Positions 35,501 to 40,015 of a stretch of 64,000 bases of DNA are shown in pieces. The stretch spans positions 61,003-125,002 of the forward strand of contig CAVXSF010000009.1 of assembly GCA_963764345.1 (NCBI GenBank). The letters run 5' to 3'. The stretch's first letter is position 1. Each line of letters starts with the position of its first letter. A model generated the notes under the pieces. It saw only the letters and a program-made list of their open reading frames with translations, was not told the origin of the DNA and made no database searches. Source of the stretch: an uncultured Bacteroidales bacterium (GTDB lineage: Bacteria > Bacteroidota > Bacteroidia > Bacteroidales > GCA-2748055). Both the position numbers and the translations under genes were made by a program.

Positions 35501-36765
35501 CCGATCTCAAAGATGGTGTCGACTGTCGGGTCGTAAGCAATAGCAGCCGTGGCCTGTGCCGTGATCTCATTTCGTATCGTGTCGGCGCCGATGAAATCGC
35601 CGGTCAGGTAACGACCCGATCCGGTGGTACCGGCGGAACATACGGTTATTCTTTCCCCCACTTCTTCATAAATCTCACGAAGGCCGCGCTGAATGGCTTC
35701 TATCGGCCGGCTGGCTGTGGGAAGGTAACGCCGGGCCACCACATTATTGTCCTTGTCGATCAGAACCACGTTGGTGCTCAGTGAGCCTACATCGATCCCA
35801 AGTGAGACATCTGTCTTTTGACCCGACCCGGGCAATTTTACGGTTTCTTTAGAATACAGGGCTTTGGACCTGGTCAGTTTTTCGTGGTAAAGCCCTTCGG
35901 TTCTGGGATTCTGCAGATAGGCCTCCAGCTCTTTGATTCCATGGAAACTTTCCAGGTTTTTATTCTCTTTGAGTGTATGGAGCAGCGCTCCGATAGCCCC
36001 CATGGAAGCGTGCCATTGCGGGATGATCAGTTCGCCGTCCGAAAGTCCGAAGACTTCCGTAAAGGCTCTTACCATCCCCTTGTTGGCAGCCACCCCTCCC
36101 TGAAAAATAAAGGGGGCTGAAAAGATTTTACCCCTGCCCAGAGTACTTTTGAAATTCCTGGCCACCGCAAAGCAAAGACCGGCGACAATATCATGCAGCG
36201 GAGTGGCAATCTGCTGAAGATGGATCATATCGCTTTTTGCAAAGACGCTGCAACGGCCGGCAATCCTCGGTGGCTTTTCTGACCTGAGCGCCAGCTCTCC
36301 GAACTCATCCTCAATGGATACACCGATCCGCTTAGCCTGCTGATCAAGAAAAGAACCGGTTCCTGCAGCACATAAACTATTCAGGGAAAAATCGGAAAGC
36401 CTTGAGTGCCCGTTCATTTTCGCTTTCTCCATGAAGATAAGCTTCGAATCCTCCCCACCCATCTCGATGATGGTCCTTACTTCAGGGTAATATTCGGCAA
36501 CAGATCCCGACTGGGCGATGATCTCATTGACAAAAGCGCCGCCGGTCAGCTTTGAAGCCTGAAGACCTCCGCTGCCGGTATAAGCCACCACCCCGATATT
36601 TTCGATACCGTATTCCTTAATGACGGATGAAAGAATATCATGCAAAACATGAAAAGGCCGTCCTTTGCACCATGTGTAGCGGTTCTCCAGGATCGTGCCG
36701 CCTTCATCCATGAGGATCGTGTTAACTGAAATTGAGCCAATATCGAGGCTGACATTGATCTTCAT
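32538..36765 (-). CDS. ~1400-aa acyl-CoA dehydratase-activator/reductase fusion (two ASKHA ATPase plus DUF2229-type domains; PlsAR/Ger-like); +1 frameshift near 34188
   Basis: Two repeats of D.GS...TGSG...E..AQ...E.GG.DSK...CAAGTGSFL...RC.VF; later C.P, CP..Q, GRPY, F.CGPD, E.DEH, GPCRFG.Y, PFTCMP; removing one base restores LGRPYNTTDPLLNLRLVEKL. Confidence 0.88.
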
Positions 36766-37194
36766 ACCGGAGAAATTTTAGTTGCATAAAACATAGAAAA
36801 ATCATCAATCTGTCAAATACGAAAAAACTATCCACCCGATAATCAAAAAATTCTCCTGCTCCAGGCTAGTATCTTGCTGAATATCCCGATCTAATATATT
36901 TATAATCCTTATCAATGTCAATTTTTTGAGGCAATATCGTCTTTTGCCGGTTCGATGCTTAGTACTGTCATGTAAAGCTATTTGCGAAAATACGATTGAA
37001 AAAATGTTGCCCCCGAATTGAACAATTTACCTGCGATGGACTTTTATTTACATTAAATATGCATTCACCAGTTGCATTTTGTGTGATAACACCAAAAAAC
37101 ACTACCGCTCCTTTTTTAGTGTAAACCAATGAAGATTAAAAATTAATGGGAAAATTTAATGCGTCAGGCTTGTTAACCCGGAAGGTACGTTGAA

Positions 37195-37518
37195 TTGAAA
37201 ACCAGGCCATTCAATATTATTCTGCTGACATTTTTCCACCTGCTGGTTTTTACTTACAGTGTAACGGTAAAAATCACCCATCATCATGCACTTCCGGTAA
37301 ATAAAGAATTACATGAATCTTTGGTCCCTGTATTTAAAACTCAGAAAAGCCCATGCCTGATTTGTAAATTTGAGTTCGTTCCTTTCTTTATTGATGCATT
37401 ACCCGACTTCAGCCAGCCCTGTAAACAACCGGCTGCAACATTCCGGCTTCCTGTATACCAATATCATAACAATACCCGACATTCCTGCTCAAACAGGGCT
37501 CCTCCCGAAATGATATGA
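37195..37518 (+). CDS. DUF2946-like leader protein with HHH, CxxC and C-terminal RAPP (TTG start)
   Basis: N-terminal hydrophobic segment, THHH, CLIC, Pro-rich linker, ends NRAPPEMI; 73 nt upstream of a TBDT. Confidence 0.75.
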   Translation: MKTRPFNIILLTFFHLLVFTYSVTVKITHHHALPVNKELHESLVPVFKTQKSPCLICKFEFVPFFIDALPDFSQPCKQPAATFRLPVYQYHNNTRHSCSNRAPPEMI

Positions 37519-37591
37519 CCCGGGCTTTAATACATGATCATTCCTGTCTAGCCGTCGCTCAGTTGCAAAACTTCATCAAATCATTTCAGTT

Positions 37592-40015
37592 ATGAATTTG
37601 AGAATACTACTACTTATTATTCTGATATCCTCTTTCACACGGGGATTGGAAGCATCAGCCATGGCATCTTTGAAAGGAAAAATAACCGATAAATCAAACA
37701 GTAATGCGATTCCCTTTGCAACGGTTTATTTTCCCGACCAAAAAATCGGCACTACTTCAGATATAAACGGAAATTATACTATCGATCATCTGCCAGCCAG
37801 CAAAATCCTGGTACAGGTCAGTTGTCTTGGATACCGGACCATTGTGGAAACTTTGGATCTTTCTCAAACCACCACCAGGAATTTTATCATGGAATACACG
37901 GCCACAGAGATGAATGAGGTGGTCGTCACGGGACTTTCAAAAGCTGCCGAACAAAAAAGAACCCCTACCCCCATCACCATTGTGCCCTCCTCTGTTCTGC
38001 TGCAGGAATCCTCAACAAATATTATCGATGCCATTGCCCGGCAGCCTGGCATTTCGCAGGTTACCACAGGCCCCGGGATTTCAAAACCGGTTATCCGTGG
38101 GCTCGGTTATAACCGGGTGGTTGTGGTTGCCGACGGTATCAGGCAGGAAGGCCAGCAATGGGGAGATGAGCATGGCATTGAAATCGATGAGTCAACCGTC
38201 AGCAGGGTTGAAATACTGAAAGGCCCTGCAAGCCTGGCTTATGGGTCCGATGCTCTGGCCGGAGTCGTTAACCTGATTTCGGCTCCAAGTCCGACTGAGG
38301 GTAATATAAAAGGACAGGTTATCAGTAACTACCAGTCGAACAACGGTCTGATGGCATACTCTGCCGACCTGGCCGGCAACCTGAAAGGCTTTACCTGGAA
38401 CTTCCGTTACAGTAATAAAATGGCTCATGCCTATAAAAATAAATATGACGGTTATGTTTATAATTCGGGTTTCAGGGAACAGGCCGGCTATGGCATGATC
38501 GGCATTAACAGGGCATGGGGGTATTCTCATCTGATCGTCACGGCTTATCATTTAATGCCGGGAATTATTGAAGGTGAGAGAGACAGTCTTACCGGAGAGT
38601 TTGTCAAGCCGGTTGTTGCCGATAATAATTTAGTGTCTGACGTACCAGCCACTAACAGTGATTTTAAATCGTATATGCCCGGTGTGCCTTATCAGAATGT
38701 CAATCATTACAAAGCAATATGGATGAATGATATCATGACCGGTAACGGTAGCCTGAAAACGACACTCGGTTTTCAGCAGAACCGGAGGAAAGAATACGGA
38801 GATATCCTGAATCCCGACCAGTATGGATTATATTTCCTGCTGAATACACTGAATTATGACTTCCGCTACAATCTCCCTGAATTCAGCAATTTTACCTTGT
38901 CTTTCGGGGTTAACGGGATGGGGCAGGAATCATACAACAAGGGATCAGAATTCCTGGTTCCTTCGTATAACCTCTTCGACTTTGGAATATTTTCCATCAT
39001 TAAGAAGAACCTCGGCCGTTTTGATATAAGTGGTGGATTGCGTTTTGATAACCGGTCTGAGAATGGAAAGGGATTATACCTTGATGCCAACGGTCAAAAG
39101 ACAAACCGGGAGGCCGCCGGAGCGGCTACTAAGTTCAATCCTTTTACTTCAGATTTTTCCGGCCTTTCCGGTAGTATTGGCGCCACGTGGCAAATCAGCA
39201 AGGCATTTTATTCAAAACTGAATTTTTCAAAAGGATTCAGGGCTCCGAATATTGCTGAACTTGGTGCAAATGGTGTACATGAAGGAACCCAGCGGTATGA
39301 AATCGGTGATCCGAATCTGAAGTCAGAAAGCAGCCTGCAAACCGATTATGCCCTCGGTTTGGAAAGTGAACATATTTCAGCAGAGATGGATCTTTTTGCT
39401 AACAATATTCAGAACTATATCTTTGCGCGAAGACTGGATGCTATGGATGGCGGAGATTCCATTTCCGACGGCATGAGAACCTACAAATTTGTGTCGGGCC
39501 ATGCCCTGCTTTCAGGCGGTGAAATCAGAATCGATGTTCACCCTCACCCGCTCGACTGGATTCATTTTGAAAATTCATTCTCATTGGTGCAAGCCATCCA
39601 ACCGGGATTACCTGATTCAGTAAAATACCTGCCGCTGATTCCGCCGCCCCGCTATCAATCCGAACTGAAATTTGAAGCAAAAAATATCCGGAATGTCCTG
39701 AAGAATGTCTATTTTTCTGTTGGCTTAAGTCATTATTTCCGGCAGGACAGGTTCTATTCAGCCTTTAATACCGAGACTGCAACACCGGCTTATACGCTTT
39801 TAAGACTTGGAGCAGGAACAGAATTCGAGCATAACCACAGAACCGTTTGTTCTCTCTTCTTCACCGTTGACAATCTCGCCGACGTGGCCTATCAAAGTCA
39901 TCTCAGCCGGTTGAAATATGTCGGATATAATTACAAAACAGGAAGGGAAGGAGTATTTAACATGGGACGAAACATCAGCCTCAAAGTGATCATTCCGATT
40001 GATTATAAACCCTGA
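37592..40015 (+). CDS. TonB-dependent receptor, probably for a metal or metallophore
   Basis: Signal peptide, carboxypeptidase-regulatory-like N-domain, EVVVT TonB box, plug KPVIRG...VEILKGPASLAYG; His motifs WGDEHG, GVHEG, HPHP. Confidence 0.92.
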   Translation: MNLRILLLIILISSFTRGLEASAMASLKGKITDKSNSNAIPFATVYFPDQKIGTTSDINGNYTIDHLPASKILVQVSCLGYRTIVETLDLSQTTTRNFIMEYTATEMNEVVVTGLSKAAEQKRTPTPITIVPSSVLLQESSTNIIDAIARQPGISQVTTGPGISKPVIRGLGYNRVVVVADGIRQEGQQWGDEHGIEIDESTVSRVEILKGPASLAYGSDALAGVVNLISAPSPTEGNIKGQVISNYQSNNGLMAYSADLAGNLKGFTWNFRYSNKMAHAYKNKYDGYVYNSGFREQAGYGMIGINRAWGYSHLIVTAYHLMPGIIEGERDSLTGEFVKPVVADNNLVSDVPATNSDFKSYMPGVPYQNVNHYKAIWMNDIMTGNGSLKTTLGFQQNRRKEYGDILNPDQYGLYFLLNTLNYDFRYNLPEFSNFTLSFGVNGMGQESYNKGSEFLVPSYNLFDFGIFSIIKKNLGRFDISGGLRFDNRSENGKGLYLDANGQKTNREAAGAATKFNPFTSDFSGLSGSIGATWQISKAFYSKLNFSKGFRAPNIAELGANGVHEGTQRYEIGDPNLKSESSLQTDYALGLESEHISAEMDLFANNIQNYIFARRLDAMDGGDSISDGMRTYKFVSGHALLSGGEIRIDVHPHPLDWIHFENSFSLVQAIQPGLPDSVKYLPLIPPPRYQSELKFEAKNIRNVLKNVYFSVGLSHYFRQDRFYSAFNTETATPAYTLLRLGAGTEFEHNHRTVCSLFFTVDNLADVAYQSHLSRLKYVGYNYKTGREGVFNMGRNISLKVIIPIDYKP

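Follow-up and report, generated by a model that had tools for sequence, protein, structure and literature searches.

A conserved RAPP-ending leader upstream of a haem-receptor/ZnuD-type TonB-dependent transporter in Bacteroidota: a candidate nascent-chain sensor

Results

A conserved leader-transporter unit

We analyzed a stretch of 64,000 nucleotides from an uncultured Bacteroidales bacterium (contig CAVXSF010000009.1, positions 61,003 to 125,002 of the forward strand; hereafter the window, numbered from its first letter), in which a 107-residue open reading frame (ORF) ending in RAPP lies directly upstream of a gene for a TonB-dependent transporter (TBDT). This leader ORF is confirmed as a real gene rather than a chance open frame, the leader-TBDT pair is a conserved unit, and, both in the window and family-wide, the tail and stop codons of the leader show complementarity to the sequence immediately ahead of the TBDT start. 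With a probability of about 0.68, we consider the leader to be a nascent-chain sensor of the CruR/CutF (DUF2946) kind from a divergent Bacteroidota branch, in which a stalled ribosome would unmask the TBDT start. On the points that can be tested in silico, namely the leader, its motif, its cysteines, its position, the fixed Cys-to-RAPP distance, the tie to DUF2946 and the RNA helix, the analysis supports a first-pass annotation of the window, which had read the ORF as a secretion-coupled, metal-sensing arrest peptide regulating a metal importer. The leader has the following parts.

37195..37518, + strand: leader ORF, 107 aa, TTG start; putative divergent DUF2946/CruR-like arrest leader, from homologues and locus conservation
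37213..37269, + strand: N-terminal hydrophobic segment, residues 7-25, NIILLTFFHLLVFTYSVTV; read from the sequence, likely signal anchor
37279..37287, + strand: HHH, residues 29-31; H29 and H31 invariant in the subfamily alignment
37354..37365, + strand: CLIC (CxxC), residues 54-57; C54 and C57 invariant, 43 residues from C57 to R101
37495..37506, + strand: RAPP, residues 101-104, codons AGG GCT CCT CCC; presumed stall site
37507..37518, + strand: tail codons E-M-I and TGA stop; predicted 5' arm of a masking helix

The translation of the leader ORF (37195-37518, + strand) is MKTRPFNIILLTFFHLLVFTYSVTVKITHHHALPVNKELHESLVPVFKTQKSPCLICKFEFVPFFIDALPDFSQPCKQPAATFRLPVYQYHNNTRHSCSNRAPPEMI. Since an in-frame TAA stands upstream at 37174-37176, the TTG at 37195 is the sole start candidate before the hydrophobic segment. 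K2 and R4 precede the 19 hydrophobic residues and the invariant K26 follows them, as read by eye from the sequence. The 107-residue ORF, the hydrophobic segment, HHH, CLIC and RAPP three residues before the stop had all been listed in the first-pass annotation and stand, and the coordinates confirm its spacing of 73 nt to a TBDT carrying WGDEHG, GVHEG and HPHP. A further item on that list, a Pro-rich linker, was its weakest part and falls away: prolines account for 11 of the 107 residues, and outside RAPP none is conserved in the alignment described next.

Homologues of the leader were collected by an exhaustive phmmer search (E ≤ 0.001), which returned 22 matches, 20 of them small proteins of 103-123 aa. 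The other two, P0122 (2034 aa) and P0123 (566 aa), were each matched in 8 stretches and were left out of the alignment; P0123 was rejected as a leader homologue because it is a tandem repeat, unlike the leader in kind, and P0122 was set aside along with it. The alignment of the window leader with its 20 small homologues (A2, 21 sequences) has L11, K26, H29, H31, C54, C57, E60, R101, P103 and P104 as invariant residues, and R(A/G)PP always lies 2-4 residues from the C-terminus. The conservation of RAPP that the first-pass annotation called for is thus present in A2, and RAPP or RGPP is kept across Bacteroidota.

We then compared a profile built from 32 TBDT relatives with species-representative genomes and took the best 80 of at least 602 matching stretches (individual loci are given as L numbers). 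Enough upstream DNA was available at 74 of these 80 TBDT-orthologue loci, and at 63 of the 74 a same-strand ORF ending in R[AG]PP within 8 residues of its stop lies directly upstream of the TBDT (2-7 residues follow the motif in the leaders collected). By comparison, among the 3444 other ORFs of 60 aa or more at these loci, only 1 ends in this manner, so that a check named in advance, conservation of the leader upstream of TBDT orthologues, came out in its favor. The 63 leader loci come from Bacteroidales, Prevotella, Muribaculaceae, Dysgonomonas, Saprospiraceae, Chitinophagaceae, Chryseobacterium and others, and a hydrophobic segment is present in 62 of the 63 leaders by a simple hydrophobicity rule rather than a dedicated signal-peptide predictor. 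Genes beyond the leader-TBDT pair are not conserved across the loci.

These results bear on the possibility that the leader frame is open only by chance within a 5' untranslated region. Such a frame might be expected to require a TTG start, as the leader does, to match no known family and to be missing from protein collections, and indeed the leader matched no Pfam or NCBIfam model at E ≤ 1 and was absent as a predicted protein from a set of 5.8 billion proteins in a word-index search. However, 20 small homologues share its invariant residues, its distance from Cys to RAPP is fixed (see below), and ORFs of this type stand at 63 of 74 loci against 1 of 3444 controls; because the leader is conserved, we regard a chance frame as already refuted. 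By our own start-picking rule, 27 of the 63 locus leaders start with TTG or GTG and 7 more have no usable start; the leaders concerned, besides that of the window, include L008, L016, L017, L042, L044 and others. Such starts, together with small size, may explain why gene callers frequently miss these leaders.

Among the orthologue loci without a leader, eight have unrelated genes or nothing comparable upstream. At L022 (3521-3914), a leader remnant is split across three frames, with HHCQLCDF in one and FLRG... in another, so that the leader there is either decayed or disrupted by an assembly error. Two further loci (L049:521-1051 and L065:3165-3689) carry related upstream ORFs of ~175 aa in place of the RAPP leader, ending in ...SKPPKLA and ...VPPPKIFFS, respectively. 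These ORFs matched no Pfam or NCBIfam model and may represent another Pro-ending leader type.

A fixed distance from Cys to RAPP

We next examined spacing in 84 leaders, comprising the 63 from the loci and the 21 of A2. All 84 have R[AG]PP followed by 2-7 residues, having been collected by that criterion or by homology. A CxxC precedes the motif in 65 of them; counting the residues that separate its second Cys from the Arg gives 43 for 51 leaders, 44 for 13 and 88 for a single leader. Each of the 19 leaders lacking CxxC, mostly from Chitinophagaceae, has one Cys 46 or 47 residues before the Arg, which is the position of the first Cys of CxxC. Thus, a Cys lies 46-47 residues ahead of the Arg in 83 of the 84 leaders, even though the stretch between the Cys motif and RAPP is fixed in length and not conserved in sequence. 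In CruR, the distance between CXXC and RAPP is 45 residues and is conserved to within 1-2 (PMC9426467); the 43 residues in the window leader lie at the edge of this published tolerance and are equally tightly fixed. The CruR-like reading of the first-pass annotation therefore gains a fixed Cys-RAPP distance in the Bacteroidota leaders, as published for CruR.

This spacing also helps to weigh whether the leader could instead be a stable, membrane-anchored accessory protein that binds metal or haem, such as a chaperone or periplasmic relay, with RAPP merely slowing its synthesis or serving as a structural C-terminal motif. The conservation of the anchor, the His pair and the Cys pair would be in keeping with a binding protein, and CutF was first conjectured to be a copper chaperone (Ozturk 2021, as cited in PMC9426467). 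However, a stretch of fixed length and unconserved sequence suits a ruler better than a fold, and the tail codons are constrained at the RNA level, as described below. In addition, according to an excerpt of PMC12992588, bacterial proteomes avoid RAPP and RGPP, and the two motifs show enrichment at the C-terminal ends of small upstream ORFs (uORFs). We therefore consider an accessory protein quite improbable.

An indirect link to DUF2946

The Pfam scan of the 63 locus leaders returned DUF2946 (PF11162) at E ≤ 1 in 17, mostly over the whole model, with the gathering score of 23.7 bits reached by two, both from Prevotella (L033, 23.9; L040, 24.0). The window leader lies below this threshold and has no match to the model at E ≤ 1. 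When A2 was compared by hhalign with A3, a profile of 13 Prevotella-type leaders, the two aligned over their full length with 96.5% probability (E 8.7e-10). Because of this alignment, and because leaders of the A3 type touch the DUF2946 threshold, we treat the window leader as a DUF2946 relative, probably a divergent one beyond the reach of the Pfam model; the link is indirect, with the curated score not attained by the window leader itself. The DUF2946-type relation proposed in the first-pass annotation is supported to this extent, in that related leaders reach or approach the Pfam model and the profile comparison ties the window's subfamily to them. The window leader also has the traits of DUF2946 proteins, namely CXXC, RAPP near the C-terminus, and a gap followed by a TBDT.

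In the ESM Atlas, the clusters nearest to the leader are unnamed Bacteroidota proteins of 105-108 aa, and the nearest named cluster is DUF2946 (score 0.95, with the family on 36% of members), which we take as a lead only. A separate observation concerns NCBIfam NF047702, the 'LIC10965 family' of Leptospira, to which 8 of the 63 leaders (L001, L005, L006, L011, L019, L043, L053 and L078) have weak, sub-threshold and partly full-length matches (best E 1.3e-5); in this family, spirochaetes may have a counterpart of the Bacteroidota leaders. NCBIfam scans gave no match to the 'HYC_CC_PP family', which had been considered as a candidate family for the leaders.

The leader tail is predicted to pair with the region before the TBDT start

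Two further elements lie between the leader and the TBDT.

37519..37591, + strand: intergenic region, 73 nt, C 0.27, G 0.15; no terminator-like site and no Rfam match
37576..37587, + strand: predicted 3' arm of the masking helix; its end lies 4 nt ahead of the TBDT ATG; from duplex calculation and folding

In the window, the core of the predicted helix is formed by GAAAUGAU (37507-37514, within codons E-M-I), which pairs with AUCAUUUC (37580-37587), and UCA (37576-37578) is the partner of the UGA stop codon (37516-37518). The tail-start duplex has an energy of -11.2 kcal/mol (z -2.9), and in three folding windows the pair probabilities were 0.81-1.0 in the 8-bp core and 0.53-0.72 at the stop-codon pairs. 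The fold around the TBDT start that the first-pass annotation had suggested looking for was thus found as a helix of 37507-37518 with 37576-37587, and it is conserved as a principle in the family. In these calculations, one helix arm falls within the putative footprint of the stalled ribosome, and the helix would hide the downstream initiation region, an arrangement of the SecM-secA and CutF-cutO type. A 221-nt fold also contained a 7-bp outer helix between 37464-37470 and 37589-37595 (GUUAUGA, which includes the TBDT start codon), seen in the minimum free energy (MFE) structure only; its 5' arm consists of leader codons ~35 nt before the stall site.

Across the family, the gap between leader and TBDT ranges from 16 to 267 nt (median 89). 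For each locus, we calculated the duplex between the 24 nt from the first Pro codon and TBDT positions -24 to +9. Of 31 offsets tested between -150 and +30, the mean duplex energy was -8.8 kcal/mol at offset 0, -8.2 at -6 and -8.5 at +6, while the other 28 offsets gave means between -4.7 and -6.2 kcal/mol; the best offset was -6, 0 or +6 in 28 of 64 loci. When leader tails were paired with TBDT starts from other loci, the mean was -5.33 kcal/mol compared with a true mean of -8.73 kcal/mol, which 0 of 5000 permutations reached, and energies of -10 kcal/mol or lower were found in 23 of 63 loci compared with 6.8% of mismatched pairs. L077, whose leader is nearly identical to that of L076, was left out of the permutation test. 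Re-picking seven TBDT start codons by a signal-peptide rule moved the true mean to -9.06 kcal/mol (mismatched pairs, -5.33), a value that 0 of 10000 permutations attained, with 25 of 63 loci at or below -10 kcal/mol versus 6.3% of mismatched pairs. The sequences of the helix arms vary between loci.

In a cruder test than the duplex calculation, which asked for at least 6 pairs between the tail zone and the TBDT start zone in the MFE structure, the helix was present in 41 of 63 loci compared with 380 of 1260 shuffles, and in 28 of the 34 loci with gaps shorter than 100 nt.

A different output could follow from the same sensor if the stalled ribosome shielded a rut site and its release let Rho terminate transcription before the TBDT, with the helix secondary or additional. 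This is the model for CruR in Bordetella (PMC9426467), and the long gaps (median 89 nt) resemble those of CruR homologues. Composition points in the same direction, with a C/G ratio of 1.43 in the 3' halves of the leaders and 1.28 in the gaps, compared with 0.85-1.04 in the TBDT genes (64 loci), and with C at 0.27-0.28 and G at 0.15 in the window, where C-rich, G-poor sequence would fit a rut site. However, the Pro, Ser and Leu codons of the tail may account for some of this C-richness, and a position-specific complementarity between tail and start would be superfluous for Rho, yet it is strongly non-random. We therefore rate a Rho output as unlikely, well behind unmasking of the start, with the proviso that Rho termination and start unmasking could act together.

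An intrinsic terminator in the gap was considered as a general output and rejected, as a loose rule asking for a hairpin plus a T-run was satisfied at 12 of 64 loci and not in the window.

A proposed mechanism and the points against it

A ribosome whose P site holds the first Pro codon would occupy about 15 nt beyond it, and Bacteroidota generally initiate translation without a Shine-Dalgarno sequence and need open RNA to do so. In the mechanism that we propose, the N-terminal anchor would take the nascent chain to the membrane, and the ribosome would arrest with the first Pro codon of RAPP in its P site. The arrested ribosome would then cover the next ~15 nt, corresponding to the 5' arm of the helix, leaving the TBDT initiation region single-stranded and the importer translated. 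The nascent chain would bind a ligand, either a metal ion or haem, through its invariant His pair and its Cys pair, and the resulting folding or tension would pull on the arrest motif and release the stall. The ribosome would subsequently terminate, the helix would re-form and the importer would be turned off. This polarity, with ligand switching expression off, is proposed because the TBDT is an importer, like BfrG downstream of CruR. The leader most likely switches the importer on and off in response to metal or haem, like the copper sensor CruR in Bordetella; stalling, secretion coupling and metal sensing would all be expected from analogy with known leaders. The placement of the Pro103 codon in the P site is presumed from toeprinting of CruR (excerpt of PMC12992588).

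Several observations weigh against this mechanism. All of the evidence at this locus is computational, and we infer both the direction of the switch and the ligand. The leader is missing from 11 of 74 orthologue loci, and the three features that would suit a chance frame (the TTG start, the lack of a family match and the absence from the protein set) count here as well. Overall, the gap-region fold is no stabler than shuffles (z -0.22, with 82 of 200 shuffles as good); the helix is not in the MFE structure of 22 of 63 loci, including the close relatives L001, L006, L008 and L053; and the shuffled background of this MFE test is high, at 30%. The C-rich, G-poor composition of the window fits a rut site, and in CruR itself the export signal is dispensable and the output is Rho-dependent termination (PMC9426467).

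The TBDT resembles haem receptors and ZnuD

The transporter gene carries three groups of motifs.

37592..40015, + strand: TBDT, 807 aa, haem-receptor/ZnuD clade by domain, profile and structure comparisons
38159..38176, + strand: plug-apex motif WGDEHG, residues 190-195; from alignment with ZnuD and ShuA/ChuA
39236..39319, + strand: FRAP 549-552, H563 and DPNL 573-576; haem-receptor-type boxes, from alignment
39539..39550, + strand: HPHP, residues 650-653; invariant in the 32 closest homologues

The TBDT has CarboxypepD_reg, Plug and beta-barrel domains (Pfam) and thousands of relatives in Bacteroidota at ~60% identity, the two closest relatives being 70% identical. The best relative by sequence in the PDB is ZnuD of Neisseria meningitidis (4rdr, E 2.7e-20). 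ZnuD also took ranks 1-4 in Foldseek, with OprC appearing only from rank 8; this search used an AlphaFold2 model of moderate quality (mean pLDDT 63.7, plug <50) that served for coarse fold ranking only. Among the 77 full-length TBDTs from the fetched loci, 72 have WGDEHG. GVHEG occupies residues 561-565, and R550, P552, H563 and L576 are invariant in 32 TBDT homologues. HPHP is missing from ZnuD, which has KPTP at this point, and from the Prevotella-type orthologues.

FRAP, ten residues, H563, nine residues and DPNL together make up the haem-receptor box pattern. By sequence, the TBDT thus has FRAP/NPNL-type boxes with a His between them and a plug-apex His, as described for haem receptors in an excerpt of PMC12094164, which gives the roles of the ChuA His86/His420-type residues and of the YRAP/NPDL boxes. 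H563 aligns with His420 of ChuA, while D192, two residues before H194, aligns with the plug His86 of ShuA/ChuA. In the alignment with ZnuD, E193-H194 correspond to chain residues 113-114 and H563 to residue 513. An offset of 14 between chain and mature numbering, deduced from two concordant positions, would make these Asp99-His100 and His499. Since the zinc ligands of ZnuD are Asp99, His100, Glu340 and His499 (excerpt of PMC6288298), three of the four ligand positions would correspond to E193, H194 and H563 in an alignment that does not include the region around Glu340.

Scores against curated models fall short of every cut-off. The TBDT reached 154.6 and 155 bits for the NCBIfam haem models TIGR01785 and TIGR01786 (cut-offs 316.85 and 323.75) and 96 bits for the ZnuD model NF038289 (cut-off 950). 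The OprC/NosA copper receptor (TIGR01778) was rejected as an identity at 35.5 bits against a cut-off of 472.45. The TBDT further differs from ZnuD and from the haem receptors ShuA/ChuA, HemR and HmuR in its extra N-terminal CarboxypepD_reg domain.

Taken together, these comparisons suggest zinc and haem/iron as about equally ranked ligand candidates, with copper next. The first-pass annotation had listed Cu, Zn, Ni and Co and omitted haem/iron, which the FRAP...His...PNL boxes make a serious candidate. Nor is the DUF2946 family tied to copper alone, since a DUF2946 gene heads the Caulobacter czrCBA operon, which is listed as an RND system adjoining zntA, a P-type ATPase gene (excerpt of PMC4176598). 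One tentative reading, to which we give distinctly less than even odds, is that the Bacteroidota leaders sense zinc or haem/iron rather than copper. The invariant His pair at the membrane face and the Cys (pair) exactly 46-47 residues from the arrest Arg would then form a Cys2His2-type site on the nascent chain, whose folding upon ligand binding would tug on the chain and end the stall, with the stall gating the importer solely by opening the RNA near the TBDT start codon. Such a site would be the natural counterpart of laboratory force experiments that reportedly combined zinc fingers with SecM.

Gene neighborhoods gave no general clue to the ligand, and their scattered hints diverge. No HmuY-type partner gene was seen among the scanned neighbors. 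Three close relatives have a ferritin gene (L001), FeoAB (L006) or a Fur-family gene (L007) nearby. A lysyl-oxidase-domain protein is encoded after the TBDT on the same strand in L021 (3276-5549), L023 (6539-8878) and L022, and the one in L023 has a type IX secretion system (T9SS) sorting tail; lysyl oxidase is a copper enzyme, so these neighbors are a possible copper link. In L080 (3479-3967), a MerC-family membrane protein with a His/Cys-rich C-terminus is encoded 24 nt upstream of a leaderless TBDT orthologue, and a MerC-like ORF was seen by eye only on the minus strand upstream of the TBDT in L066. The receptors in a paper on Riemerella ZntR could not be mapped onto this TBDT family (excerpt of PMC11960050) and were set aside.

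Discussion

The closest known counterpart of the leader is CruR (Bp2923, DUF2946), which precedes BfrG in Bordetella pertussis (PMC9426467). Each is the small first gene of its unit, carries an N-terminal export signal (a likely one in the leader) and a CxxC, ends with RAPP three residues ahead of its stop, and is separated by a long untranslated gap from a TBDT; in vitro, CruR stalls the ribosome at RAPP, the P and A sites being occupied by the two Pro codons (excerpt of PMC12992588). The leader differs from CruR in belonging to Bacteroidota, in its extra invariant H-x-H right after the anchor and, probably, in its output, which would be start unmasking rather than Rho-dependent termination. 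Its TBDT is also of the haem/ZnuD type, with a ligand that may be other than copper.

CutF (DUF2946), which precedes cutO in Rhodobacter capsulatus (PMC9973294), has an output like the one proposed for the leader. According to an excerpt of bioRxiv 10.1101/2025.02.05.636593, it has an exported chain, a Cys motif and a C-terminal Pro-rich stall site at which the stalled ribosome melts a stem hiding the initiation region of the next gene, and its export signal is required. Unlike the leader, CutF has CXXXC and PPP, and EF-P matters for it. Furthermore, copper induces the CutF stall and turns on a detoxifying oxidase (same excerpt), whereas the leader precedes an importer and would be expected to have the opposite polarity.

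A stem in Bacteroidota would have no Shine-Dalgarno sequence to hide, in contrast to the CutF case. The arrest peptides ApdA/ApdP and SecM share with the leader a RAPP near the C-terminus and an N-terminal localization signal, and force-sensitive arrest is a general principle common to them and to the mechanism proposed here (PMC7897499, PMC10951233 and PMC10987492). However, these peptides monitor Sec/YidC and precede sec/yidC genes, while the leader precedes a nutrient importer and carries metal-type ligands. RAPP-like arrest peptides of Bacteroidales and Flavobacteriales did stall in a PURE translation system with B. subtilis ribosomes (excerpt of PMC10987492).

Leaders of this kind are already known and partly catalogued, so that the family-level analysis presented here is new but modest. 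An EMBO J 2025 survey (PMC12992588, excerpt) reports 5450 RAPP compared with 722 AAPP uORFs before genes annotated 'TonB-dependent receptor', an enriched class. In the source data for its Figure 4, three Bacteroidota reference genomes that we looked up are flagged TonB_related = 1, and a Chitinophaga pinensis leader of the same type as that of L059 is listed. The survey gives no Bacteroidota family analysis, ruler, DUF2946 link or RNA helix, and three motif strings of the window's subfamily did not occur in the part of its supplement text that was searched. The source data also list BT_RS02460 of Bacteroides thetaiotaomicron, a 118-aa RAPP leader with several His motifs and no Cys, which precedes a TonB-dependent receptor; the RAPP leaders found before TBDTs in Bacteroidota are thus of more than one type. 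Our full-text literature searches found no paper on the Bacteroidota family, its ruler or its helix.

The present analysis adds the constant Cys-RAPP spacing, an additional invariant His pair, the indirect DUF2946 link, the conserved tail-to-start helix and the haem/ZnuD-like importer. DUF2946 was mapped mostly to Proteobacteria, with a few members in Planctomycetes, Firmicutes and Deinococcus (Roy et al. 2022). If the proposed mechanism is correct, nascent-chain sensing of the CruR type would be common throughout Bacteroidota and not, as initially mapped, mainly a proteobacterial trait, and the leader module would be coupled to a widely conserved family of haem/ZnuD-clade importers. It would likewise offer a testable handle on the post-transcriptional control of metal or haem uptake in gut, rumen and soil Bacteroidota, for which the Cys-RAPP ruler and the tail-start helix make concrete predictions for mutagenesis. 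Gene callers and Pfam miss such leaders, the window's ORF being in neither.

Other features around the leader

Rfam models applied to 36700-37700 gave only a sub-threshold match to PhrS on the minus strand, which we dismissed. A scan for sigma-70-type promoters and terminators returned counts equal to those in shuffles, with none in the gap, and the Bacteroidota -7 motif TAnnTTTG has no exact + strand copy in 36766-37194 and a window count equal to chance. An inverted repeat, ACACCAAAAAA (12 nt) TTTTTTAGTGT, lies at 37089-37122 in the divergent intergenic region, ~75 nt upstream of the leader start; its 11-nt arms are 91% complementary, and it could be an operator or a small hairpin.

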